Shown piece by piece: positions 3,365 through 22,802 of a DNA stretch of 64,000 nucleotides. Below the pieces are notes generated by a model, which worked only from the letters and a program-made list of their open reading frames with translations, made no database searches and was not told the DNA's origin. The position numbers and the translations under genes are program-made. The stretch is from Candidatus Aminicenantes bacterium (lineage in GTDB: Bacteria; Acidobacteriota; Aminicenantia; UBA2199): positions 8,513 to 72,512 of the forward strand of contig JAOZUQ010000004.1 in NCBI GenBank assembly GCA_029938635.1, in the 5' to 3' direction. The number at the start of each line of letters is the position of its first letter. Position 1 is the first letter of the stretch.

Positions 3365-5872
3365 ATGAGAAAACACAATGATCTTTATGTCAGGATCACC
3401 CTGTTTGTCATCATAACCCTGGGTTTTCTTCTGAGGATAAATCACTGGTTTGATTTTCTCGGAGCAGATGAAATTGGGAAGACAGGGCTCATGACATGGT
3501 CATGGGATTTTCATAAAGATCCTTTCCCGATCCATTATTATCCCCCATTCTTTATGTATCTTAACTTTGTTTTTTCTTTTATCCTTAATAAACTGGTAAT
3601 ATTTCTCGGGATTATAGATTTTAATAATATTTTCCAGAATACTGATTTTGGTTTCATATTTACACTTAAGACCGGGAGGATCCTTTCTGCAATTTTCGGA
3701 ACATTCAATATCTATATGGTATATCTGCTTGGAAAAGAGTTCTTTAATAAATATGCGGGGATTTCAGCCGCTTTGCTGCTGTCGGTATTCTGGCCTCATG
3801 TCATAGACTCACACAACTTTAAGTCCGATGTGCTTCTTACACTTCTGATCACGATTGTTGTATATTATGCATTAAAATTTCTCAGGACAAAAAACAAACT
3901 TAATTTATTCCTGGCTTCATTTTTTTTCGGGCTTTCGGTAGCAGCAAAATTCAATGGTGTATTCTTCGGGATCGTATTACTGATCCCTCTTTTCTATCTC
4001 CGAAAAGAATTCTCTTTTGTTAAAGGCTTTTTTTATGTAGCTGTAGGGAGTGCAGCAGGATTCTTTTCCGGAGCACCAAACTGGCTGGTCCACCCGGTAA
4101 GCAATATTAAGGTAACACTTAAATATTTGAGTAGACTTTCAGAGGAACTTGTCTGGTATGATCCCTTCCCTTCATCATTTATCCTGTATGGCAAGAATTT
4201 GTTGGAACATTTCGGGATATTGCTGATCATTATTTTTATTGCCGGTATGATTTTGTCTTTTATAAGGAAAAACAGAGAAGCTGTTTTAATCTCGTTTTCA
4301 TTATTGGTTTATTTTATTATGGCAGGCAGGGAAAATTATCTGAATTACAGAGCAATCCTGCCCCTCATCCCACTGGTAGCTATAATAATAGGAAAAGTTA
4401 TCTTTGTAGATACAAAAGAACTTTTTCGCGGGAGCCGGATTCGGTGGAGTGTTACTGCTCTGCTTCTAATTCCGGTTTCTATCTATTCCTTTGTTAATTT
4501 CACAAGGAGTTACAAAAGCTTTGATCTGCTGAAAGGGATAGCATCACATCCGGTCAGGGAGAGAGCCGGGATCGGCGAACCGGACTATTCGGCATATTAT
4601 ATGAGAAATCACTTTGGGAGATCCAGTTTCACTTTCCGTGAAATGTGGACCCCACCGGCTGTAGGATTCAGGGGATCTGTGTTCGGAAGGGATGTTACGA
4701 AGGTCCCGGAAAAAATGTTCACAGGGAAAAGAAAATTTGATTTCCTTATAACTAGTTTCAGAACTGATTATATTTTACGTAAGACAAAGAGCATGAAGTT
4801 TAAAAATGCAGCAAAAAACAGGCTGAAAAATTATTCTCCTTTTTATGAGGTTGAAAGGCCGGCAATTTTCACCTGGAGTGATGATATTCTTTTCTGGTAT
4901 AGAAAACCGAATTATATAAAAGGAAATTTGAGATTGGATAAAGGGATGCCGCTTCCCCGTACATTTGTACCGTTGAACGAGAATCCTTCCATTCACCTTC
5001 CTCTTCAAAGATATGAAAAGGATCCGTGTTACGGAGTTGTAAAGAATGGGATTGCAGGGAAATATATTTTTTCAAAGAAGGAAATTGAAAAGATAGTTTT
5101 CAGTTTTATTTCAAGAGAAAAATTAAAGTTAAAAGTTGATGTGAACGGGGAAAAAGCGGTTCATATTTCAGAAAAAGGTGCTTACACATGCAGCATTGAA
5201 ATATCCGATATGGTCCCACAGGAATTCAGTAAAACTGCTATAAGAAAATTGTTTGAAGCTTCTCTGGATCCGGATGAACTGAAAAAAGAATACTTTATTT
5301 ATAAAATAGAGATCAGGTCTAATACCCATGACAATATTCCATATACTTTTAGTGTTGAATATACCGGGGAGGGGATTTCGAAGACAGAATACAAAAGACC
5401 TGTAGATGAAATCCATGATACTCAGGGAGAAATTCCGGAACTGTTCAGCGATAGTGTGACCCCTCGTTGGGTGAAAACTTTTTTCAAAAGAAATGGAGTT
5501 GACCTGATTCTTCTCTCATATATTAATTCTCTGACGATCTATGAGAATAAAAATAGTTCTATTGATAAAATTGACACAGGATATATGCCGATAAATTGCG
5601 GGCAGTATAATGTGGCAGTTGTTTCTGAGCAAATTGTAAGGAATTCACCGGCATATAAAAAAGGAGAGCTGAAAATTATTCTGATATCAGGTGAGTCCAG
5701 AGAAGAGATAAATCTGGATCCTGGAGATGGAGATTCAGGAAAAGATATATATTTCAAACATGAGTCAGGGTTCTTCCGAATAATCAGTTCAGGGATAAGA
5801 GATTCAAATCTTATGATTAAAAAGATCACAATTGTCCCTGACTTTAAAAAAAGTATTAGAAAATTGCAATAA
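3365..5872 (+). CDS. GT-C fold integral membrane glycosyltransferase (PMT / ArnT / GT39-GT83-like) with a large C-terminal soluble domain.
   Basis: 835 aa. About 11 TM helices in the N-terminal 400 aa, with a DE pair (GADEIGKTG) in the first extracytoplasmic loop as in PMT/ArnT-type GT-C enzymes. About 400-aa hydrophilic C-terminal domain. Confidence 0.45.
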   Translation: MRKHNDLYVRITLFVIITLGFLLRINHWFDFLGADEIGKTGLMTWSWDFHKDPFPIHYYPPFFMYLNFVFSFILNKLVIFLGIIDFNNIFQNTDFGFIFTLKTGRILSAIFGTFNIYMVYLLGKEFFNKYAGISAALLLSVFWPHVIDSHNFKSDVLLTLLITIVVYYALKFLRTKNKLNLFLASFFFGLSVAAKFNGVFFGIVLLIPLFYLRKEFSFVKGFFYVAVGSAAGFFSGAPNWLVHPVSNIKVTLKYLSRLSEELVWYDPFPSSFILYGKNLLEHFGILLIIIFIAGMILSFIRKNREAVLISFSLLVYFIMAGRENYLNYRAILPLIPLVAIIIGKVIFVDTKELFRGSRIRWSVTALLLIPVSIYSFVNFTRSYKSFDLLKGIASHPVRERAGIGEPDYSAYYMRNHFGRSSFTFREMWTPPAVGFRGSVFGRDVTKVPEKMFTGKRKFDFLITSFRTDYILRKTKSMKFKNAAKNRLKNYSPFYEVERPAIFTWSDDILFWYRKPNYIKGNLRLDKGMPLPRTFVPLNENPSIHLPLQRYEKDPCYGVVKNGIAGKYIFSKKEIEKIVFSFISREKLKLKVDVNGEKAVHISEKGAYTCSIEISDMVPQEFSKTAIRKLFEASLDPDELKKEYFIYKIEIRSNTHDNIPYTFSVEYTGEGISKTEYKRPVDEIHDTQGEIPELFSDSVTPRWVKTFFKRNGVDLILLSYINSLTIYENKNSSIDKIDTGYMPINCGQYNVAVVSEQIVRNSPAYKKGELKIILISGESREEINLDPGDGDSGKDIYFKHESGFFRIISSGIRDSNLMIKKITIVPDFKKSIRKLQ

Positions 5873-14118: not shown

Positions 14119-14135
14119 GTGACAATTATTGTCAC
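14119..14135. promoter_or_regulatory. Perfect 8-1-8 palindrome GTGACAAT-T-ATTGTCAC in a divergent intergenic region. Candidate operator.
   Basis: Read directly from the sequence. A related half-site, GTCACAATTATTG, lies at 14038..14050, abutting the RBS of the minus-strand sulfatase-like gene. Confidence 0.35.
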
Positions 14136-14264
14136 TATTGTATGGTTTTTGTAAAAATGGTTGAAAAAAAAATCTGAATATGTAATACTATAGTGGGATT
14201 TCGGATTGGCATGAAAGTTGCATTGTAAGTAATGGTTAAAAAAAGCACATTGAATGGAGCATTT

Positions 14265-17200
14265 ATGAAAAAGCTAATATTTCTCTCTTTTATTATATTT
14301 ATCTCATTTTTTACCATAAATAGTCAGACTGTAAGCTCTCTCGGGATCACAGGGACCTATTATGACATAAGAGCAGATAATAACGGTAATATCCATATTC
14401 TATGGATCGATAACGGATGGGCTAAGTATGGACAGATCGTAAACCGACAGGTTGTCAACCAGGTCACTATAAATGTTGTTGACTGGAATGAGGTGAATTA
14501 TAGAAAGGTTCGCCCCAGGCTGTCTGTAAAACCGGATGGCAGCGAGGTCCATTTTGTATGGGTAACACCTTTTTTCAAATCAAAGGACTTCATACACTGC
14601 TGGAGAGATTCGGGAGGGACCTGGAGAAGGGAGAAAATAGTCACAGTTAAAAACTTTTGTCTTGCTCCTACTTTTACGGTCGATTCGAGCGGAGTGTACC
14701 ATGCTGTTGTTATTGAAGATACCGGCGGTTCCCTTCTTCATCCTGTTGCCTATTGGCGGAAAGCTCCGGGCGGGGGATGGATAAAGAAGACAAATCTCGC
14801 TCCTGCAACAAAAGAACATTTATGGCCGAATCTTTTTACCGATATGAACGGTAACGTACATATCACCTGGGATGAGGATAAAGATATAATCAAATACAGG
14901 TATGCCGCTTCCGGGGGAGATCTTTCGACAAGTGCAACAATGACATTATCTAATCTCCATCCCCATAATAAGCAGAGTGAAATATTTGCCGATGCATCGG
15001 GAAATGTTTATGTTGCGGCTCTCTCATATTATACCCCCGGGACCCAGGGTGGAATTGATTATTGGGTCAAACCGGTCGGCGGATCTTTTTCAACATCGGT
15101 GAGAATTTCCGGCCCGGATTTTCCTTTAAAGGAATATTTCCCTTTTCCGGCAGTCATTGCACGATCACCTGACATGGTAGCTGTTTCCTGGGCTCAGACT
15201 AAATATCTAACACAACCTGCTGCGATAGGTGTTGCTGTCTATGACGGTGCCTGGCAGCCTGTAGAGTATCTTTCTACAACAGCAAACTTCAAGGCAGATA
15301 CAAGAACAACGATGGCAATGAACGATGAAACTGCATTTATGGTTTGGAGAGAAGGAGACCAGATGTTATATCTGGCAACATTTGATTATGCACTTTTCGG
15401 AGTCCTTTCCCCGAATGGAGGAGAGAACTGGAGTATTAATAGAACTTATGAGATTCGATGGAATCTTGAGAATGCAACAGGCAATGTTAATATAAACCTC
15501 TATAAAAATAGTGTAAACCTGGGCCCGGTTGCATCTGATGTAGCAGATGCCGGTTCTTTCAATTGGACTATCAATACTCTTGAAAGTGGAGCCTCTATTG
15601 AGACAGGAGTAGATTATCAGATCGAAGTTAGAGCAGTGAATGATTCTGATTCTGATATGTCAAGTGCTTTTTTTACTATTGATTATGCATTTGAAATTAC
15701 TTCTCCTGTTTCCAGTAGTGCCTGGGAGATCGGACAGAACTATAACATTACATGGACTAGTCCCGCGATTTCATCACCAACTGTAAAGTTAAATATATAC
15801 AAAGATTCAATACTTGTTGAAAATTTTGTTGAACAGCTTACCGGCCCCAATTCCGGTTCGTACAGCTGGACAATTCCATCTTCTTATGTAGCGGGGAATT
15901 ATATAATAAGATTAAAAACAGAAGACGGCCTTCTTATTGATGACAGTGACTTATTTAGTATTACCGGAACTTCAACTCTTCCATCGATCACGGTAACCTC
16001 TCCGACCTCAAGTGATACCTGGGACAAGGAGAGTACGTACGACATAACCTGGGAAAAAACCGGGACCCAATCTGCTAATGTGAAAATAAATGTATTCAGA
16101 AATTCGATCGATGTTGCAAATTTTGTGGAACAATTAACCGGGCCGAATTCCGGATCCTACAGTTGGACGATCCCCGGGACCTATGCTACCGGTAATTATA
16201 TCCTCAGGCTTAAGACCGATGACGGGCTTTTATCCGATGATAGTGATGTTTTTGCCATCTCAGGCGGCGGTTCGACCACTCCGTCGCTCACGATCACTTC
16301 TCCCACTTCGAGTGATACCTGGGACAAAGGAAGCACGTATAACATAACATGGGACAGGAATGGTACATTGTCGGCCAATATAAAGATCAATGTATATAAA
16401 GATTCAATACTGGCTGGAAATTTTATTGAGCAGTTAACAGGACCGAATTCCGGTACATACAGCTGGACCATCCCCGGTACCTATACAGCAGGGAATTATA
16501 TTCTCAGGATGAAGACAGATGATAATCTGGTAACAGATGACAGTGATGTGTTTGTTATTGCAGAGAACTCAACAACTCCCTCTATCACGATCACTTCTCC
16601 CACTTCGAGTGATACCTGGGACAAAGGAAGCACGTATAACATAACATGGGACAGGAATGGTACATTGTCGGCCAATATAAAGATCAATGTATATAAAGAT
16701 TCAATCCTGGTTGAAAATTTTATTGAGCAGTTAACAGGCCCCAATTCGGGTACCTACAGCTGGACCATTCCGGGAACTTATACAGCAGGGAACTATATTC
16801 TCAGGATGAAAACAGACGATAATCTGGTGTCAGATGACAGTGATGTTTTCCAGATCACTGACGGAGGAAGTGTAACACCTACAATGACCATAATTTCTCC
16901 TTCGTCATGCAGCTCCTGGCCGAGAAATAATACTTATACAATAACCTGGCTGAAAGACGGAACGATGTCAGCTAATGTTATAGTTAACATTTATAAAGAT
17001 TCAATTGATGTGGGGAATTTTGTTGAACAGTTGGCCGGTCCTAACACAGGATCCATGATCTGGGCAATTCCTAGTTATTATGAGGCCGGGAATTACATCA
17101 TAAGATTGAAAACTGATGATGACCAGGTCTCAGATGACAGTGATCTGTTTGCGGTTAACAGTTCTATAGTGAGTACTCCGAAAATAACTGTAACTTCTCC

Positions 17201-17465
17201 AACATCATGTGATACCTGGAGTAAACTGAAAACCTATAAAATTGCATGGTCAAAGGCCGGGACAATGTCTGATAATGTGAAAATAAATATTTACAAAGAT
17301 TCAATAGAGACCCCAAATTTTGTTCAGCAGCTCACCGGGCCTAATACAGGATCTATTGACTGGACCATTCCCGGAGCTTATGTGAACGGGAATTATATTT
17401 TACGTATAAAAACTGTTGATAGTGCAGTTATCGGTGATAGTAATGTATTTGTAGTAACAAACTAA
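14265..17465 (+). CDS. Large secreted repeat protein: beta-propeller-like N-terminal region plus about seven tandem ~99-aa Ig-like (Kre9/KNH-like) domains.
   Basis: Signal peptide MKKLIFLSFIIFISFFTINSQ (an in-frame upstream ATG at 14232 is also possible). The N-terminal ~380 aa carry repeated 'DxxGNxHxxW'-type blades. Then come repeated units ITSPTSSDTWDKGSTYNITW...NIKINVYKDSI...NFIEQLTGPNSGTYSWTIPGTYTAGNYILRMKTDD...SDDSDVF, separated by Ser/Thr-rich linkers. Confidence 0.6.
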   Translation: MKKLIFLSFIIFISFFTINSQTVSSLGITGTYYDIRADNNGNIHILWIDNGWAKYGQIVNRQVVNQVTINVVDWNEVNYRKVRPRLSVKPDGSEVHFVWVTPFFKSKDFIHCWRDSGGTWRREKIVTVKNFCLAPTFTVDSSGVYHAVVIEDTGGSLLHPVAYWRKAPGGGWIKKTNLAPATKEHLWPNLFTDMNGNVHITWDEDKDIIKYRYAASGGDLSTSATMTLSNLHPHNKQSEIFADASGNVYVAALSYYTPGTQGGIDYWVKPVGGSFSTSVRISGPDFPLKEYFPFPAVIARSPDMVAVSWAQTKYLTQPAAIGVAVYDGAWQPVEYLSTTANFKADTRTTMAMNDETAFMVWREGDQMLYLATFDYALFGVLSPNGGENWSINRTYEIRWNLENATGNVNINLYKNSVNLGPVASDVADAGSFNWTINTLESGASIETGVDYQIEVRAVNDSDSDMSSAFFTIDYAFEITSPVSSSAWEIGQNYNITWTSPAISSPTVKLNIYKDSILVENFVEQLTGPNSGSYSWTIPSSYVAGNYIIRLKTEDGLLIDDSDLFSITGTSTLPSITVTSPTSSDTWDKESTYDITWEKTGTQSANVKINVFRNSIDVANFVEQLTGPNSGSYSWTIPGTYATGNYILRLKTDDGLLSDDSDVFAISGGGSTTPSLTITSPTSSDTWDKGSTYNITWDRNGTLSANIKINVYKDSILAGNFIEQLTGPNSGTYSWTIPGTYTAGNYILRMKTDDNLVTDDSDVFVIAENSTTPSITITSPTSSDTWDKGSTYNITWDRNGTLSANIKINVYKDSILVENFIEQLTGPNSGTYSWTIPGTYTAGNYILRMKTDDNLVSDDSDVFQITDGGSVTPTMTIISPSSCSSWPRNNTYTITWLKDGTMSANVIVNIYKDSIDVGNFVEQLAGPNTGSMIWAIPSYYEAGNYIIRLKTDDDQVSDDSDLFAVNSSIVSTPKITVTSPTSCDTWSKLKTYKIAWSKAGTMSDNVKINIYKDSIETPNFVQQLTGPNTGSIDWTIPGAYVNGNYILRIKTVDSAVIGDSNVFVVTN
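15400..17460 (+). repeat. In-frame tandem coding repeats, period about 297 bp (99 aa), about 7 units. Units starting at 16291 and 16588 share about 125 bp of perfect identity.
   Basis: Direct sequence comparison: 16291..~16415 is identical to 16588..~16712, with about 90% identity over the rest of the unit. Flanking units are about 75-80% identical. Reflected in the near-identical antisense shadow ORFs 16196..16471 and 16496..16744. Confidence 0.7.
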
Positions 17466-17574
17466 AATATATTAAGGTTTAATTACTGAGTATTTCGCCT
17501 GCCTATAAGTCTATTCCTGCTTTGTTAAAAAATTTTTACGCTCCGGAAAAAAATAATTGAAAATTTATTTTTTT

Positions 17575-17603
17575 TTGAGATATACTTCTTGTAGTTCTAT
17601 ATA
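17575..17603 (+). promoter_or_regulatory. Sigma70-like promoter, TTGAGA-N17-TATATA, for the first paralog.
   Basis: -35 TTGAGA at 17575..17580, 17-nt spacer, -10 TATATA at 17598..17603. The same architecture recurs before the two following paralogs. Confidence 0.45.
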
Positions 17604-17629
17604 TAAAGATGATAAACAAGGAGGAAATC

Positions 17630-19009
17630 ATGAAAAAACTATTTATATTTTCATTCATTCTGGCAGTAACGATGGGGATGATCTATTCACAGAGTATTAC
17701 TGTGACATCACCATCGGGTGGTACATGGTACAAAGGTTCTACACATAACATCACATGGACAGCGACAGGGTGTTCAAGTTCCAGTTATAAGATCAATATT
17801 TTCAGGGGTTCAATTGATCCTGCAAATTTTGTTGAACAACTTACCAAAACAGGAACGCCTGCGAAGAGCTGGACAATACCTATGGGTTATACAAACGGGA
17901 CCTATTACATCAGGATTAAGACTGACCCGGCTCAGCCCGGATGCCAGGGAGACAGTAGTGCTTTTACAATCACAGATCCTTCCTCACCCGGGCCGGGGAC
18001 AGCAGCTTCAATTACGGTTACCAACCCTACTACCGGGACTAAATGGGGCAGAGGTACTACAAAGACTATAACCTGGGATAAGAGTGGGGATCTGGATTCA
18101 AATATCAAAATAAATATCTTCAGGAATTCTATTTCTGAAGCTAATTTTGTTGAACAATTAACCGGGTCTAATAATGGTTCTAAAAGTTGGAATATCCCGG
18201 CATCTTATGATCTGGGGACATATTATTTGAGGATAAAAGAAGCTGTTGGTACAGTACAGGGGGACAGCAGGGCGTTTGAGATCATTAATCAGATGTATGT
18301 ATTTACACCGCTTGTAGCGACCATGTTTAAACCTCACTCAATTAAGATAACAGAACCGAGCGGCAGGGATCTTGCCCTTAACAGCAGGATGAAGATATTG
18401 TGGAGACCTAAAAACCTTACCAACAATGTGAAGATCTCCCTGATGAAGAACGGAGAATTTTTCGGTGTTATTGAGGAGAATCTTGCTCCCGGAAGGATTT
18501 CTACTGAATGGACAATCGGAAGGACGCTGATTAAAACTGCAACACCTGATTCAGGATTTAAAATAAAAATTGAAGAGACTGGTGTCGCTAATGTATCTGC
18601 TGAAAGTGCTGTCTTCAGTATAATAGATGAAAAGAACATTGATCTGAGCTGTTATATCTCAGGACACAGCTCCAGGGATTACGGGAGAGTTGTCAGGCTG
18701 ACCGTAAAAGTGAGGATAAACAATTTTGGTGGCCCCCCTCTTGCGAGAGTTCCGGTTCAGGTTTCTGTCAGGACCCAGGGTTCTACACCAGGATCTGGAG
18801 AGACAAAGACCAAATATCTTGAAAATGTCACTTACAGAGGACACAGCTATGAGTATAGTCTCAGTTTTGATTTCAGGCTGCATAGCGGAAGCAGGTATGA
18901 TTCACGGAGGTCACTAGGTAGAGTGGCTACGGTAGTTGTTGATCCCGGAGATTCTTTCCGTGACAGAAGGATAAGGAACAACACTTCAACTTATACTTTT
19001 AGTTTTTGA
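17630..19009 (+). CDS. Secreted repeat protein, paralog A: signal peptide, two Kre9/KNH-like Ig domains, a third divergent Ig-like domain, and a CARDB-like C-terminal domain.
   Basis: Start moved to the ATG at 17630, 7 nt after AAGGAGG (the ORF track starts at 17609). MKKLFIFSFILAVTMGMIYSQ signal. ITVTSPSGGTWYKGSTHNITWTATGCSSSSYKINIFRGSIDPANFVEQL... C-terminus ...VVVDPGDSFRDRRIRNNTSTYTFSF is CARDB-like. Confidence 0.6.
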   Translation: MKKLFIFSFILAVTMGMIYSQSITVTSPSGGTWYKGSTHNITWTATGCSSSSYKINIFRGSIDPANFVEQLTKTGTPAKSWTIPMGYTNGTYYIRIKTDPAQPGCQGDSSAFTITDPSSPGPGTAASITVTNPTTGTKWGRGTTKTITWDKSGDLDSNIKINIFRNSISEANFVEQLTGSNNGSKSWNIPASYDLGTYYLRIKEAVGTVQGDSRAFEIINQMYVFTPLVATMFKPHSIKITEPSGRDLALNSRMKILWRPKNLTNNVKISLMKNGEFFGVIEENLAPGRISTEWTIGRTLIKTATPDSGFKIKIEETGVANVSAESAVFSIIDEKNIDLSCYISGHSSRDYGRVVRLTVKVRINNFGGPPLARVPVQVSVRTQGSTPGSGETKTKYLENVTYRGHSYEYSLSFDFRLHSGSRYDSRRSLGRVATVVVDPGDSFRDRRIRNNTSTYTFSF

Positions 19010-19033
19010 TGCTTAAAATAGATCACAATTTAA

Positions 19034-19066
19034 GGCTCCCGGAGAGATCCGGGGGCCTTTTTTTTT
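19034..19066 (+). terminator. Rho-independent terminator (GGCTCCCGG-AGAGAT-CCGGGGGCC plus T9).
   Basis: GC-rich hairpin followed by a T-run immediately after the stop at 19009. The identical hairpin recurs after the next paralog. Confidence 0.7.
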
Positions 19067-19129
19067 ATCTGTAATTAGATCGATGTCTATATTGCTAAAA
19101 AAAGGGTGAGTGAAATTCTGAATAATAAG

Positions 19130-19158
19130 TGAGATATTTTTTTAAAACTTCTATTATC
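19130..19158 (+). promoter_or_regulatory. Sigma70-like promoter, GTGAGA-N17-TATTAT, for the second paralog.
   Basis: -35-like GTGAGA at 19130..19135, 17-nt spacer, TATTAT at 19153..19158. Followed by an AAGGAGG RBS and ATG at 19187. Confidence 0.45.
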
Positions 19159-19186
19159 TTAATGTAAGCAAATTAAGGAGGAAGAA

Positions 19187-20389
19187 ATGAAAAAGTCAGT
19201 AATAATTTTATTTGTTTTGTTTGTGTCGATTGGGATGATATATTCTGCCAATTTGACAGTTAATCAACCATCAGGAGGCACCTGGTATAAGGGAACCACG
19301 CACAACATCACCTGGACAGCAACCGGATGTAGCAGTACCAGTTATAAGATCAACATTTTCAGGGGTTCAATTGATGAGTCAAATTTTGTCGAACAACTTA
19401 CCAAAACAGGAACGCCTACGAAGAGCTGGACAATACCTATGGGCTATACGAACGGGACTTACTACATCAGGATCAAAACAGATCCGGCACAGCCCGGATG
19501 TCAGGGAGACAGTGCTGCATTTACGATCACTGATCCCTCCTGTGCGCCTTCGATCACTGTAACAAATCCGACCGGATCATCACAATGGTGCCGTGGACAA
19601 AGCAGCAACATAACGTGGACTTCTTCAGGTTCCCTTAATGCGAATGTAAAGATCAATATTTTCAAGAATTCAATTAATCAGGCAAATTTTGTACAACAAC
19701 TGACAGCTACAACTGCCAGCGGTTCAAAGAGCTGGGCGATCCCGGCCTCTGCTGCAACCGGCACATATTTTGTAAGGATAAAAGAGGCGGTTGGGACAGT
19801 TTACGGAGACAGTCCCGGATTCCAGGTTAAAGATTGCGGAACAACACCAAGTGGTCCTTCATGTTCATCTTTTGTGGTTTATAAACCTGCAAAAGATGAT
19901 GTAAAGTGGATTGGTTTCCCTATGGTAGTAAAATGGAAATATAAGAAGCTGATGTTTCCGGGCACTTTGAAGTCAAAAAAAGTTCTTCTGGCTCAAAAAG
20001 CTCATCTGGCTGTAAAACCGGTCCTGGAAGCGTCATTGGTAAAGATGGTCAAGATTGAGATCAAAAGTGTGAAATGTTTTTCAATTGGACAATTAGTACC
20101 CAGATTAAGAGAAATGTATGTAAAGAAGAAAGTATCTCTCGAAAAGATCAATACTCTAATGAAGATTCCGTTCCTTGTTGAGATGTTAAAATGGAAAACA
20201 CTTAAAGCAATGACCCCTGATGATGGATCTGAATTAGTAATAATTCCTTCATCCTATAAAAAGGGGTGTTATGTGATAAGAGTTACCAAGTTGTGGTGTA
20301 CTTCAAGTGATTCGGACAGAAGAGCTACTTCAGAAAAATTTTCACTGATCCCGTTGCAAATTCCCGGGTATTTAGTAGAAGCATTATAG
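19187..20389 (+). CDS. Secreted repeat protein, paralog B: conserved N-terminal signal plus two Ig-like domains, then a divergent Lys-rich C-terminal module.
   Basis: The N-terminal 190 aa are about 85-90% identical to paralogs A and C. The C-terminal ~180 aa are lysine-rich (…KWKYKKLMFPGTLKSKKVLLAQKAHLAVKP…). The other two frames contain stops, so this is not a frameshift artefact. The ends retain a weak Ig-repeat pattern (VVYKPAKDDVKW…GSELVIIPSSYKKGCYVIRVTK). Confidence 0.6.
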   Translation: MKKSVIILFVLFVSIGMIYSANLTVNQPSGGTWYKGTTHNITWTATGCSSTSYKINIFRGSIDESNFVEQLTKTGTPTKSWTIPMGYTNGTYYIRIKTDPAQPGCQGDSAAFTITDPSCAPSITVTNPTGSSQWCRGQSSNITWTSSGSLNANVKINIFKNSINQANFVQQLTATTASGSKSWAIPASAATGTYFVRIKEAVGTVYGDSPGFQVKDCGTTPSGPSCSSFVVYKPAKDDVKWIGFPMVVKWKYKKLMFPGTLKSKKVLLAQKAHLAVKPVLEASLVKMVKIEIKSVKCFSIGQLVPRLREMYVKKKVSLEKINTLMKIPFLVEMLKWKTLKAMTPDDGSELVIIPSSYKKGCYVIRVTKLWCTSSDSDRRATSEKFSLIPLQIPGYLVEAL

Positions 20390-20418
20390 TAATAATAAAC
20401 AGACAGCAAATATAAAGG

Positions 20419-20451
20419 AGGCTCCCGGAGAGATCCGGGGGCTTTTTTTTT
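20419..20451 (+). terminator. Rho-independent terminator, same hairpin as at 19034 (GGCTCCCGGAGAGATCCGGGGGC plus T-run).
   Basis: Identical stem-loop sequence to the terminator after paralog A, followed by T9. Confidence 0.7.
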
Positions 20452-20499
20452 AACTACATTTTTTATTGTTAAAATAATTATAAATAAAACTTTAAAAAA

Positions 20500-20528
20500 A
20501 ATGAGATATTTCTTTTTTACTTTTATAT
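20500..20528 (+). promoter_or_regulatory. Sigma70-like promoter, ATGAGA-N17-TATATA, for the third paralog.
   Basis: ATGAGA at 20500..20505, 17-nt spacer, TATATA at 20523..20528. AAGGAGG RBS and ATG at 20559. Confidence 0.45.
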
Positions 20529-20558
20529 AATAGCTAGAATAAATTAAAGGAGGAAAAT

Positions 20559-21689
20559 ATGAAAAAATTATTTATATTTTCATTAGTTTTTGTAGTAGCA
20601 ATGGGCCTGGTATATTCAGCCGGGCTTACAGTAAATTCACCATCGGGTGGAACATGGTACAAAGGAACAACTCATAACATCACATGGACAGCGACAGGGT
20701 GTTCAAGCTCCAGTTATAAGATCAATATCTTCAGGGGGTCAATTGATCCTGCTAATTTTGTAGAACAACTTACCAAAACAGGAACTCCCACAAAGAGCTG
20801 GACAATACCTATGAGCTATACGAACGGGACCTATTACATCAGGATCAAAACAGATCCGGCACAGCCCGGATGTCAGGGAGACAGTGCTGCATTCACGATC
20901 ACGGATACTCCTACACCCGCCACATCAGCGATAACTATTACACACCCGACAGCAGGCGAAGAATTCTGCAGGGGACAGGGGGAGACAATATCATGGACCC
21001 ATACCGGTACATTGAGTGCAAATGTAAAGATCAATATATTCAGAGGTTCAATTGATCCTGCAAATTTTGTAACACAGCTTACGGCTACTACTGCAAGTGG
21101 ATCCAAAATATGGAATGTTCCTGCGGCTCAGGCATTAGGAACAAATTATCATGTTCGGGTGAAAGAGGCTACTCTCGGAACAACAAGTGGAGACAGCCCT
21201 GCATTTACAGTTGCAAATTGTGACGGAGGAAGTGGTCCGGGACTCGATCCGGGACTTATTGAAAGGCTTAAGGACTTGATGAGACGTCTTGAAAGGATCC
21301 CATGGTGGAGAAATCCAAAAGGCCCATGGCCTGGACCCGGACCGGGACCATGTCTTTCCTGCCCGGTGTTTGATCTTCAAAAACTTAGGGACTTGCTGAA
21401 AGAAGTTGGGTTAAAGGAAGAGATCGGAATTGCTCTGTATAATGGCGGACAGAAAATTGCTGATTTTGGAAAATTCGGCCCTCCCTCGCGCTTAGGAAGA
21501 AAGGGTTTGAAATTAAACAGACTAAAAGGGATGAAACTTATGCAAAACAGAGTAGGTCTGAAAAGTATTAAGATGGAACATACTAAAATGTTGAGCAGAG
21601 GTACAGGTTTTAAACTTGTATTCATCAATTCGAAGGGAAAAATGATCGGAGACTCCGGGATAAAACTGGAAGAGAAAGTAATGAAATAA
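20559..21689 (+). CDS. Secreted repeat protein, paralog C: conserved N-terminal Ig-like domains, a PGPGPGP linker, and a basic Gly/Lys/Leu-rich C-terminal module.
   Basis: MKKLFIFSLVFVVAMGLVYSA signal. Two Kre9/KNH-like domains. C-terminus …PWPGPGPGPCLSCPVFDLQKLRDLLKEVGLKEE…RLGRKGLKLNRLKGMKLMQNRVGLKSIKME…. Confidence 0.6.
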   Translation: MKKLFIFSLVFVVAMGLVYSAGLTVNSPSGGTWYKGTTHNITWTATGCSSSSYKINIFRGSIDPANFVEQLTKTGTPTKSWTIPMSYTNGTYYIRIKTDPAQPGCQGDSAAFTITDTPTPATSAITITHPTAGEEFCRGQGETISWTHTGTLSANVKINIFRGSIDPANFVTQLTATTASGSKIWNVPAAQALGTNYHVRVKEATLGTTSGDSPAFTVANCDGGSGPGLDPGLIERLKDLMRRLERIPWWRNPKGPWPGPGPGPCLSCPVFDLQKLRDLLKEVGLKEEIGIALYNGGQKIADFGKFGPPSRLGRKGLKLNRLKGMKLMQNRVGLKSIKMEHTKMLSRGTGFKLVFINSKGKMIGDSGIKLEEKVMK

Positions 21690-21713
21690 GCTTTGTAAAA
21701 GATTTTAAAATAA

Positions 21714-21743
21714 AGCCCCCGGCAAAAACCGGGGGTTTTTTTT
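21714..21743 (+). terminator. Rho-independent terminator (AGCCCCCGG-CAAAAA-CCGGGGG plus T8).
   Basis: Perfect 9-bp GC stem with an A-rich loop and a T-tract, 25 nt after the stop of paralog C. Confidence 0.7.
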
Positions 21744-21788
21744 ATGAAAGAATTGAATTTAGTGAAATAGCCTTATCGCGGAGGGGAA

Positions 21789-22802
21789 ATGCAGAACAAT
21801 ATTGCATCTTCAAAAGAATTGATATTTGCTGATCTGATAAAAATTACTAAAAAAAGGGCAATCTTGCTTTCCACAGTATTAATATCAGGAATAATTCTTA
21901 TAACACTTTTTTTTACTTTTAAATATCCTCCCGAGGCCTTATCATCAAGGATCTTCTCAGATGATCTCGGAAATATTTTCAGTATAATCAATAGTAAAAA
22001 TAGTTTTTTATCTCCTGATGATATCAACAAACTGATTGATCCCATTATTCAATTAAATATAGAAAAGAAGAAAAAATATAAGATTTCAGTAAAAAACACA
22101 TTTAAAAAAGGGAAAATACACAATTCAGTTGTTGGAGTCCTTGACCTGAATATAAGTAGAAAATTTGCAAAATATGATGAAAAAAGTAAAGTAAAATTTA
22201 CTAGGGATATTGAGGATTTTTTCAGGAAATTTGAGCATCAACTTTTTTTATGGTTTGTTTACAGAGAGAAAATTGAAAAGCTGAAGATCATAGACAACAT
22301 TATAAAAAAAAAAAAAGCAATTGAAGAAGAAGAGAAGAAAATTAGTATTGTAAAAAAATTCAAGGATATCCCCTCAGAAAATTACCGGGATATACTTGAT
22401 ATAGACCCTAGTTATCTTCCTCCTTCCCAGCAATATTACGGGCTTGTTATTGAAATGAATAACCAAAAAAGGCTTCTTGATTTGTTTAATGAAGCCCTTA
22501 TTGAAATAGATGGAATATTGAAAATTATTTCAGATAAAGAGTTGTCATTATTTTCTGAGATTGTAATTATCAAAGACCTGAAGCAGTATGAAATATTATA
22601 TAACAGAGTAAAGTTAATTTCTGAAAATATCCGGATTTTAAAGAATAAACTTATTTTAAGAGGATTTTATCGGTCTGAAAATATCCCGGGAATTTATCTG
22701 ATAGTTTTTTCCTTTTTAATACTCTTTATATTCCTGGTCATTTTAATAAGCTTTATTGAATGGTGGTCCAAAAATAAAGATAAGATTAACATCAGAATAT
22801 AG
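21789..22802 (+). CDS. Wzz-like polysaccharide co-polymerase (chain-length determinant) candidate. Called from topology only.
   Basis: 337 aa. TM1 at about aa 23-44, a Lys/Glu-rich predicted coiled-coil region of about 250 aa, and a C-terminal TM (IYLIVFSFLILFIFLVILISF). This is the PCP-1 architecture. GGAGGGG RBS. Confidence 0.4.
   Translation: MQNNIASSKELIFADLIKITKKRAILLSTVLISGIILITLFFTFKYPPEALSSRIFSDDLGNIFSIINSKNSFLSPDDINKLIDPIIQLNIEKKKKYKISVKNTFKKGKIHNSVVGVLDLNISRKFAKYDEKSKVKFTRDIEDFFRKFEHQLFLWFVYREKIEKLKIIDNIIKKKKAIEEEEKKISIVKKFKDIPSENYRDILDIDPSYLPPSQQYYGLVIEMNNQKRLLDLFNEALIEIDGILKIISDKELSLFSEIVIIKDLKQYEILYNRVKLISENIRILKNKLILRGFYRSENIPGIYLIVFSFLILFIFLVILISFIEWWSKNKDKINIRI

Follow-up and report, generated by a model that had tools for sequence, protein, structure and literature searches.

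The window analysed here is a stretch of 64,000 nucleotides (nt) from a Candidatus Aminicenantes bacterium (contig JAOZUQ010000004.1, positions 8,513 to 72,512). On its plus strand, between positions 14232 and 22802 of the window, the list of open reading frames (ORFs) gives five genes, namely a long gene U, three small genes A, B and C, and a gene for a protein of 337 amino acids (aa). The small genes are consecutive plus-strand ORFs, just as the original prediction, made from the letters of this DNA, had placed them. U, A, B and C all encode immunoglobulin (Ig)-like domains of the Kre9_KNH family (PF10342), and Pfam recognised seven such stretches in U and two each in A, B and C, with E-values of 2e-12 to 9e-12 for the small proteins. 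The bit scores of 48.2 (A), 46.0 (B), 46.3 (C) and 160.1 (U) all exceed the gathering score of 24.6, which makes the four proteins members of the family. The N-termini of A, B and C consist of MKK, a hydrophobic stretch and YS(Q/A), read from the sequence, and carry no lipobox cysteine, which argues for Sec-type signal peptides rather than lipoproteins. The intergenic spacers, 167-180 nt long, hold nothing but a terminator and a promoter, and ORFs of at least 60 aa are absent from them.

The alignment of the three small genes is good from a point shortly before the start codon to about codon 116 and poor beyond it. Over the first Ig domain (domain 1, codons 21-116) they are 81-86% identical in nt over 285 nt and 89-94% identical in aa; the predicted 85-90% over about 270 bp was somewhat too high, and the similarity does lie at the nucleotide level as claimed. 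The prediction had also counted two Ig domains, besides the signal peptide, into the near-identical part, which holds for the first domain and fails for the second (domain 2), whose identity is 58-65% in nt and 55-63% in aa. The C-terminal parts, called tails below, are mutually 19-25% identical with negative global scores, i.e., at background level, and were rightly described as unrelated to one another. The blastn searches extended the repeated stretch into non-coding DNA. A and C share 82.8% over 408 nt, beginning exactly at the promoter motif (C side 20502-20909), B and C share 77.9% over 503 nt, beginning at the terminator hairpin of the preceding gene (C side 20419-20906), and A and B share 80.2% over 368 nt. 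The repeats of U have merely a 57-nt motif, about 75% identical, in common with this module, and no silent copies were seen by blastn.

The repeated non-coding DNA contains regulatory elements. A promoter-like element, xTGAGA-N17-TAT(A/T)(A/T)T, followed by the ribosome-binding site (RBS) AAGGAGG, stands before A, B and C, so that the predicted common promoter architecture was present at all three genes, and the view of a conserved 'handle' with different 'heads', each gene being its own transcription unit, was supported. The same type of element lies upstream of orthologous genes in five other genomes (loci L001, L002, L027, L030 and L035), and its conservation in all these genomes argues for a functional element. 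The identical terminator after the first two genes was likewise found. In the 64 kb, the 23-mer GGCTCCCGGAGAGATCCGGGGGC has exactly two copies, one after A (19034) and one after B (20420), where 0 are expected by chance, and the hairpin after C differs. The B terminator was missed by the hairpin pattern scan, probably because the stem extension enters the T-run, and it was found through the exact 23-mer. The hairpins form genome-specific pairs, as L002 has its own pair, GGCTCTCCGGA(TA/AT)GATCCGG(G/A)GAGCC, both copies of which have compensated stem changes, and L001 has a loop-deleted version of the hairpin of the window. A search of Rfam returned no family in the whole window. Runs of T9, T7 and A8 stand beside or inside the promoters of A (17566-17574), B (19138-19144) and C (20493-20500), respectively; a variable run length in the population could produce on/off switching, although such runs are frequent in AT-rich spacers anyway.

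A scan of reference genomes with domain 1 returned three close loci. In L002 (metagenome-assembled genome, MAG, HOU_bin.0035), genes U', A', B' and C' follow one another in the order of the window and are followed by the same downstream genes. Identity between orthologues is 84% (A), 62% (B) and 61-75% (C) in the tails and 69-77% in the second domains, and this common order together with orthologous domains 2 and tails indicates that the array is old. Domain 1 behaved in the opposite way, with aa identities of 89-94% within the window and 74-90% within L002 versus 57-70% between the two genomes. In neighbor-joining trees (NJ, codon alignment), the split between A, B and C of the window and those of L002 had 100% bootstrap support for domain 1 and still 84% on third codon positions alone, and each orthologue pair had 100% for domain 2. 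Indels and motifs in domain 1 are also genome-specific (e.g., PAQPGCQGDS in the window vs DNSCFGDS in L002). In a sliding window, the crossover from 'paralogues closer' to 'orthologues closer' fell at codons ~111-119, i.e., in the linker after domain 1, and the blastn tracts of 368-503 nt, which start at a terminator or promoter, stop where domain 1 stops. Among the window copies, the proportion of synonymous differences (pS) in domain 1 is 0.42-0.52, corresponding to a synonymous divergence (dS) of 0.6-0.9, while between the genomes pS is 0.68-0.82 and saturated; the nonsynonymous divergence (dN) within the window is 0.05-0.09, with dN/dS ~0.1. With such dS values nothing about the copies is recent. 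Since domain 1 groups by genome and domain 2 and the tails group by orthologue, it is the handle which was exchanged and not the heads, and the prediction of a recent duplication followed by exchange of C-terminal modules had to be reversed on this point. The features of concerted evolution were found together, i.e., grouping by genome inside and by orthology outside the tract, a signal in synonymous sites and non-coding DNA, discrete breakpoints and independent recurrence. As judged from these sequences, a module that groups by genome and has a sharp end is the signature of gene conversion (concerted evolution), rather than of recent duplication or of protein-level convergence alone.

The array of the L001 locus (Acidobacteriota MAG103) differs in content. 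Its C-type gene is directly preceded by the 3' end of an A-type gene (1-251), and gene B is accordingly missing from that array. The domain 2 of the L001 C-type gene is unlike that of the window or of L002 (42-57% to everything), which suggests that domain 2 has been replaced there.

The homogenisation pattern was seen in three further Aminicenantes genomes, in one of them with a sharp breakpoint where domain 1 ends. This one is represented by P0006, an A-type orthologue from a close relative, whose identity to A is 88-89% from the linker ITDPSSPGPGTAASITVT on, against 56% for domain 1 and 40% for the signal peptide. In L027, a pair of adjacent genes whose tails differ have domains 1 that are 86-87% alike, while their tail-orthologues in L030 are 55% alike; the domain 1 of the second L027 gene is 90% identical to that of the L030 A-type gene. 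In L035, a giant Kre9 protein gene is followed by five small genes, each with a TGAGAT(A/T)T...TATATAAT-like element and AGGAGG. The A-type gene, the C-type gene and a third gene of L035 share a first domain of a different Kre9 subtype, 83-86% alike (75-83% in nt), which is only 34-44% identical to domain 1 of the window, while the A tail is 56% and the C tail 41% identical to those of the window. A scan of metagenomes with the domain 1 alignment gave at least one locus (L031, 8712-12992), in which three adjacent genes of another uncultured genome combine a related, Cys-containing first Kre9 domain with very different tails. The middle gene of L031 carries this first domain twice in tandem, the genes lie outside any polysaccharide locus, and one of the tails has a counterpart in an array gene of L035 (33% over 317 aa).

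Table 1. Coordinates of the array and its elements in the 64,000-nt window.
Feature	Position	Strand	Description
Gene U	14232..17465	+	Secreted, 1077 aa; ~390-aa N-terminal region, then 7 Kre9_KNH Ig repeats
Gene A	17630..19009	+	459 aa; true start ATG 17630, AAGGAGG just 5'
A, signal peptide	17630-17689	+	
A, shared domain 1	17690-17977	+	
A, own domain 2	~18005-18295	+	
A tail, third Kre9-type domain	18326-18628	+	
A tail, basic terminal domain	18629-19006	+	Possibly CARDB-like
Gene B	19187..20389	+	400 aa; signal peptide, shared domain 1 (19247-19534), own domain 2, tail
B tail	19862-20386	+	175 aa, Lys-rich, net +19
Gene C	20559..21689	+	376 aa; signal peptide, shared domain 1 (20619-20906), own domain 2, tail
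C tail	21225-21686	+	154 aa, net +17, motif WWRNPKGPWPGPGPxPCLSCP
Gene for 337-aa protein	21789..22802	+	One N-terminal and one C-terminal hydrophobic segment; invariably after the array
A promoter	17575-17603	+	TTGAGA-N17-TATATA; RBS AAGGAGG 17618-17624
B promoter	19129-19157	+	GTGAGA-N17-TATTAT; RBS 19175-19181
C promoter	20501-20529	+	ATGAGA-N17-TATATA; RBS 20547-20553
A terminator	19032..19066	+	Intrinsic; 12-bp stem, GAGA loop, T-run; contains the 23-mer GGCTCCCGGAGAGATCCGGGGGC
B terminator	20420..20451	+	Intrinsic; hairpin of the 23-mer GGCTCCCGGAGAGATCCGGGGGC, then T-run
C terminator	21712-21739	+	Intrinsic; hairpin different from A and B; orthologous hairpins after C in L001 and L002
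Homogenised tract, A copy	17576..17980	+	Promoter to end of domain 1; blastn, sliding-window crossover
Homogenised tract, B copy	19033..19541	+	A terminator, promoter, RBS, signal peptide, domain 1; blastn
Homogenised tract, C copy	20419..20909	+	B terminator, promoter, RBS, signal peptide, domain 1; blastn

The tails of the three small genes were characterised one by one. The A tail is composed of a third Kre9-type domain, which had been overlooked and which matches the Kre9 profile by hhalign (96%, E=1e-8) and the U repeats by blastp (E=1e-7), and of a basic terminal domain of 124 aa with a net charge of +9 in the window and +3 in L002. Seven homologous clusters of this tail were found, and the named ones are all from Ca. 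Aminicenantes. The terminal domain had been predicted to be CARDB-like. No Pfam match of the window protein to CARDB (PF07705) was obtained at E<=1 (gathering score 22.7 bits), its best relative scored 14.7 bits (E=0.037, below threshold), two genuine CARDB domains from L003 matched by hhalign with E=0.044 over 43 columns, and the best PDB match was 2KUT_A (E=0.23), whose alignment extends over almost the entire domain, the VVDPD...NN motif among it. A likeness to CARDB is thus possible at the level of motifs, below the threshold of Pfam. The C-terminal Phe of A was considered as an outer-membrane signal and rejected, as it is not kept in distant orthologues.

The B tail has two homologous clusters among 5.8 billion proteins (P0001/P0002, 56-69% identical) in addition to the L002 orthologue, and it retains a 23-column remnant of Kre9 (hhalign 89%, E=2e-6; reversed control 0.7%). 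The C-tail family comprises 15 clusters among 1.84 billion representatives by exhaustive HMMER search and stands behind 0, 1, 2 or 3 Kre9 domains, which indicates that it is a domain in its own right, about 140 aa long and conserved in its core. The 'PGPGPGP linker' of the prediction is no linker; it sits in the most conserved motif of this domain, WWRNPKGPWPGPGPxPCLSCP. The C tail had no relative in Pfam, NCBIfam or PDB, and no significant match to PDB sequences was obtained with profiles of the C-tail and A-terminal families. A Foldseek search of PDB with the weak model of the C tail returned no match at E<=0.001, the top entries being antibody-type beta-sandwiches at a template-modelling (TM) score of ~0.3, and by hhalign the C tail matched the third domain of A weakly (34%, E=4e-4); that the C tail may hide a diverged sandwich is at most a hint and not evidence. 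The B and C tails carry net charges of +12 to +19, and this charge is kept in the orthologues. An exact-sequence contig look-up with the window proteins B and C gave no match. In the protein C of a second assembly (P0011, JGI), five residues differ from the window, all of them in the 8-residue linker between domains 1 and 2 (TDTPTPATSAITI vs TDEPTLETTAITI; 20904-20930), which coincides exactly with the end of the homogenised tract, and the difference may represent a recombination scar or a hypervariable linker. On the evidence of their sequences, the tails are conserved modules and not swapped cassettes.

U is the first member of the conserved array, since its orthologues, 1077-1529 aa in length, precede the small genes in L002, L025, L027, L030 and L035. 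Its repeat region is highly acidic (net -36, isoelectric point 4.2), and NCBIfam and PDB searches with its N-terminal region were uninformative. A 297-nt tandem repeat inside the gene (16118-16846, 2.4 copies, 85% matches) corresponds to adjacent Ig domains, which suggests that the repeats of U are also being duplicated or homogenised. Upstream of U (14119-14225) there is a perfect palindrome, GTGACAATTATTGTCAC (14119-14135), and after it come about 50 nt of non-coding DNA (GAATATGTAATACTATAGTGGGA.TTCGGATTGGCAT); both are kept nearly base for base in L002 (~3755-3860) despite saturated synonymous sites; they may be an operator plus a leader or small RNA. Pfam and NCBIfam detected no surface-layer (S-layer) or anchoring domains in U, A, B or C. 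Type IX cargo was considered as well and rejected, as the matches to Por_Secre_tail (TIGR04183) were weak, formed no significant stretch and lay inside Ig domains (U residues 545-566, B residues 151-201) instead of at the extreme C-terminus. The 337-aa protein has orthologues in L001, L002 and L035 and no family match, and its topology would resemble that of a polysaccharide co-polymerase.

The array lies among genes for polysaccharide synthesis and modification. Upstream and divergent are an FGE-sulfatase gene, a gene for one uncharacterised protein and two sulfatase genes; downstream are sulfotransferases, methyltransferases, one more sulfatase, an LPG_synthase_TM-type membrane protein, Wzx, Wzy and GT2. 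Giant and small Kre9 proteins accompany polysaccharide genes also in L025, L027, L030 and L035, and distant C-tail genes, including one without an Ig domain, lie inside polysaccharide clusters in L032, L034 and L036. A/B/C-type or C-tail genes were thus found in polysaccharide loci wherever the context was readable, in contrast to the related L031 genes, and the named relatives are all Candidatus Aminicenantes or Acidobacteriota. The G+C content is 26-31% over ~22-32 kb of the window and mostly below 36% up to ~42 kb, i.e., over the polysaccharide genes, while the array and the upstream genes have ~38-43%; the low-G+C stretch fits a compositionally distinct, possibly exchangeable glycan-synthesis segment. 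In L035 (1-4800) and L032 (4960-7764), the first gene of the locus belongs to the NusG family, a gene of the phosphodiesterase family and nucleotide-sugar genes come next, and in L035 a pair of extracytoplasmic function (ECF) sigma and anti-sigma factor genes lies just upstream of this start. Such a NusG-led start resembles the antiterminator-led capsule operons of other bacteria.

Taken together, the sequences show U, A, B and C to form an array that is old and conserved, whose genes are transcribed separately, encode Sec-secreted Ig-repeat proteins and lie within a Wzx/Wzy polysaccharide locus. Each small gene combines a common 5' module (terminator of the preceding gene, sigma-70-like promoter, RBS, signal peptide and first Kre9/KNH Ig domain) with a second Ig domain and a C-terminal module of its own. 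Recurrent gene conversion between neighbouring paralogues keeps the common module of ~410-500 nt, which ends at the linker after domain 1, similar within a genome, and the remainder of each gene evolves as an ordinary orthologue under purifying selection. The A, B and C proteins are probably exported, and their strongly basic tails may bind an anionic partner, for which a sulfated or otherwise acidic polysaccharide from the surrounding locus is the best candidate and the acidic Ig stalk of U an alternative. The shared domain 1 may contact one common, genome-specific partner, in which case a homogenised domain 1 would be tolerated or favoured. A, B and C would then be capsule- or matrix-associated structural proteins. 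We regard this combination of an old gene-converted array with a secreted, polysaccharide-binding role as the best explanation, with a probability of roughly 0.75. A further, quite tentative idea, drawn by analogy, is that domain 1 might serve as a genome-specific docking tag which, by a dockerin-like logic, would plug different proteins onto one receptor, either U or the polysaccharide; conversion would keep all tags matched to a receptor that changes over time, and the B and C tails would be new families binding sulfated or anionic glycans.

Several observations weigh against the favoured explanation. The signal-peptide codons do not group by genome (0% bootstrap, only 60 sites), so the tract is patchy at its 5' end. 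The dS of 0.6-0.9 among the window copies means that homogenisation is not ongoing at a high rate, and this value itself comes from 94 codons, is noisy and is near saturation. Only two complete arrays were compared directly, and all sequences derive from metagenome assemblies. A gapped matrix of intergenic identities was no better than shuffled AT-rich controls (75 +/- 5%) and was discarded, which leaves the blastn tracts and the hairpins as the case for conversion of the non-coding part. As for function, the role, the export, the binding and the anionic or sulfated polysaccharide are all what we infer, and the proteins showed no anchoring signal. With Pfam and NCBIfam, the B and C tails gave no domain of known function, and their AlphaFold2 models were unusable, with a predicted local distance difference test (pLDDT) of 34 for B (3-sequence alignment) and 51 for C (2 sequences), the C alignment predating the exhaustive search that added 13 C-tail relatives.

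Other explanations have been considered for the function as well as for the pattern of similarity. The proteins A, B and C could be periplasmic or outer-membrane accessory factors of polysaccharide assembly or export, acting in modification, chain handling or export, rather than parts of a matrix. This would agree with their tight and consistent placement between nucleotide-sugar or regulatory genes and the two-transmembrane protein plus glycosyltransferases, and with a C-tail protein without an Ig stalk that sits between an epimerase and a glycosyltransferase. However, a strong promoter, a consensus RBS and a terminator for each gene suggest abundant products rather than machinery of fixed ratio, long Ig stalks and a partner of 1077-1529 aa seem more typical of surface structures, and no match to the Wza, Wzc or Wzz families was found, so we hold such a role to be unlikely, though worth keeping in mind. 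The four proteins could also be substrates of the locus, i.e., surface-layer glycoproteins that are glycosylated and perhaps sulfated by the neighbouring transferases. The Ig domains are rich in Ser/Thr as read from the sequence, a PMT_2-type membrane glycosyltransferase gene directly follows the A-type gene in L025, and fungal PF10342 proteins are described, in the titles of articles, as Ser-Thr-rich GPI (glycosylphosphatidylinositol)-anchored wall proteins. But Wzx and Wzy point to a polymer built on a lipid carrier, and the lack of S-layer and anchoring domains mentioned above speaks against it too, which makes this explanation rather improbable.

Looking at the window alone, the similar 5' and unrelated 3' parts would fit a single gene that was recently triplicated and whose copies then gained unrelated C-terminal modules by cassette exchange, in the style of polymorphic effectors or surface antigens. 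This is contradicted by the same tails in the same order with orthologous domains 2 in L002, by the dS among the copies and by the comparison with P0006, in which domain 1 and not the tail was replaced. The predicted likeness to cassettes or polymorphic effectors fails as well, since there are no immunity-like ORFs in the spacers of ~170 nt, no toxin domains in the tails and no promoterless orphan cassettes, and we give this history very little credence. Equally poor are the prospects of an explanation without DNA exchange, in which lineage-specific selection, for instance co-evolution with one partner, drives the domain 1 paralogues to the same protein sequence. The dN/dS of domain 1 does indicate strong constraint, but the grouping by genome holds at third codon positions, pS is lower within than between genomes, the similarity reaches non-coding DNA including an identical 23-nt hairpin with its loop, and common indels and a sharp breakpoint are present. 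A mis-assembly artefact of the metagenome can be practically dismissed, because, even though the L001 contig ends inside the A-type gene just 5' of the C-type gene and repeats may thus break assemblies, the three copies differ at 14-19% of positions and so do not represent collapsed or duplicated reads, A, B and C are on record as identical proteins from NCBI and JGI sources, and the same design occurs in independent assemblies.

A conserved 5' half with unrelated 3' halves invites misreading as recent duplication with swapped cassettes, and that reading is corrected here. The array provides a well-controlled bacterial case of segmental concerted evolution that extends to regulatory DNA and has occurred repeatedly, in several lineages of an uncultured group about which little is known. 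Its B and C tails are now delimited as two uncharacterised C-terminal domain families, and their ties to polysaccharide clusters wherever the context is readable make them candidate glycan-binding modules. The mechanism is an ordinary, known evolutionary process, and what is new is the example, along with two tail domains that are uncharacterised and linked to polysaccharide loci. The system as such is of no new kind, and these results would interest those who study the Acidobacteriota envelope or how surface-protein families evolve more than the field at large.

Our literature search found nothing on these Aminicenantes proteins, and several known systems are instructive for comparison. In polymorphic toxin, Rhs and contact-dependent inhibition (CDI) systems, the C-terminal tips are toxins that vary between close strains, immunity genes follow, and orphan cassettes are often promoterless. 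The likeness to A, B and C, i.e., a conserved N-terminal part with unrelated C-terminal parts in several adjacent copies, is superficial, as the tails of A, B and C are conserved across genera and each gene is complete with its own promoter. Classification as a polymorphic toxin cassette with variable tip and stable N-terminus was rejected, since the reverse was found, with tails 61-89% conserved and domain 1 replaced; no immunity genes were present in the spacers and no toxin domains were found in the tails with Pfam and NCBIfam, PADLOC and toxin-specific libraries not having been searched. Phase-variable families of the Mycoplasma vlp/vsp type are marked by homopolymer or repeat tracts of variable length in their promoters or the 5' part of the coding sequence, by silent copies or by a nearby site-specific recombinase. 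RbmA, RbmC and Bap1 of Vibrio cholerae are secreted proteins with beta-sandwich repeats, encoded in the vps region, which bind polysaccharide and build the matrix. They resemble A, B and C by functional analogy only, without any sequence relationship, the binding by A, B and C being presumed, and to our knowledge they share no homogenised module. The fungal Kre9/Knh1 and Ser-Thr-rich GPI-anchored proteins belong to the same Pfam family PF10342 as the Ig domains of U, A, B and C, while the bacterial proteins differ in having no GPI signal and other partner domains; the PF10342 literature found deals with fungal wall or effector proteins throughout.

Two systems come closer in the pattern of exchange. 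Among the bab genes of Helicobacter pylori, intragenomic conversion is limited to a part of the gene that includes the 5' region and gives rise to chimeric paralogues (PMC4552749, citing Pride and Blaser 2002 on concerted evolution). The bab products are outer-membrane adhesins encoded at dispersed loci, and their conversion serves phase and adhesion variation within the host, while A, B and C are tandem genes with soluble Ig-repeat products and show no sign of phase variation. The closest precedent is given by LigA and LigB of Leptospira, Ig-like surface or secreted proteins whose upstream region, promoter and N-terminal Ig domains are near-identical and whose remaining parts are unique. In strain Fiocruz L1-130, the near-identical stretch starts at -266 nt and reaches +1890, covering the first six and a half Ig domains (PMC7821625). 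The same review derives ligA from a duplicated ligB that lost its C-terminal region and reports recombination among the lig genes of related strains. The Lig proteins belong to the Big_2 Ig family, not to Kre9_KNH, and are host-binding virulence factors, whereas A, B and C differ in forming an old array of 3-5 tandem genes in a polysaccharide locus of an environmental bacterium, with homogenisation in several lineages.

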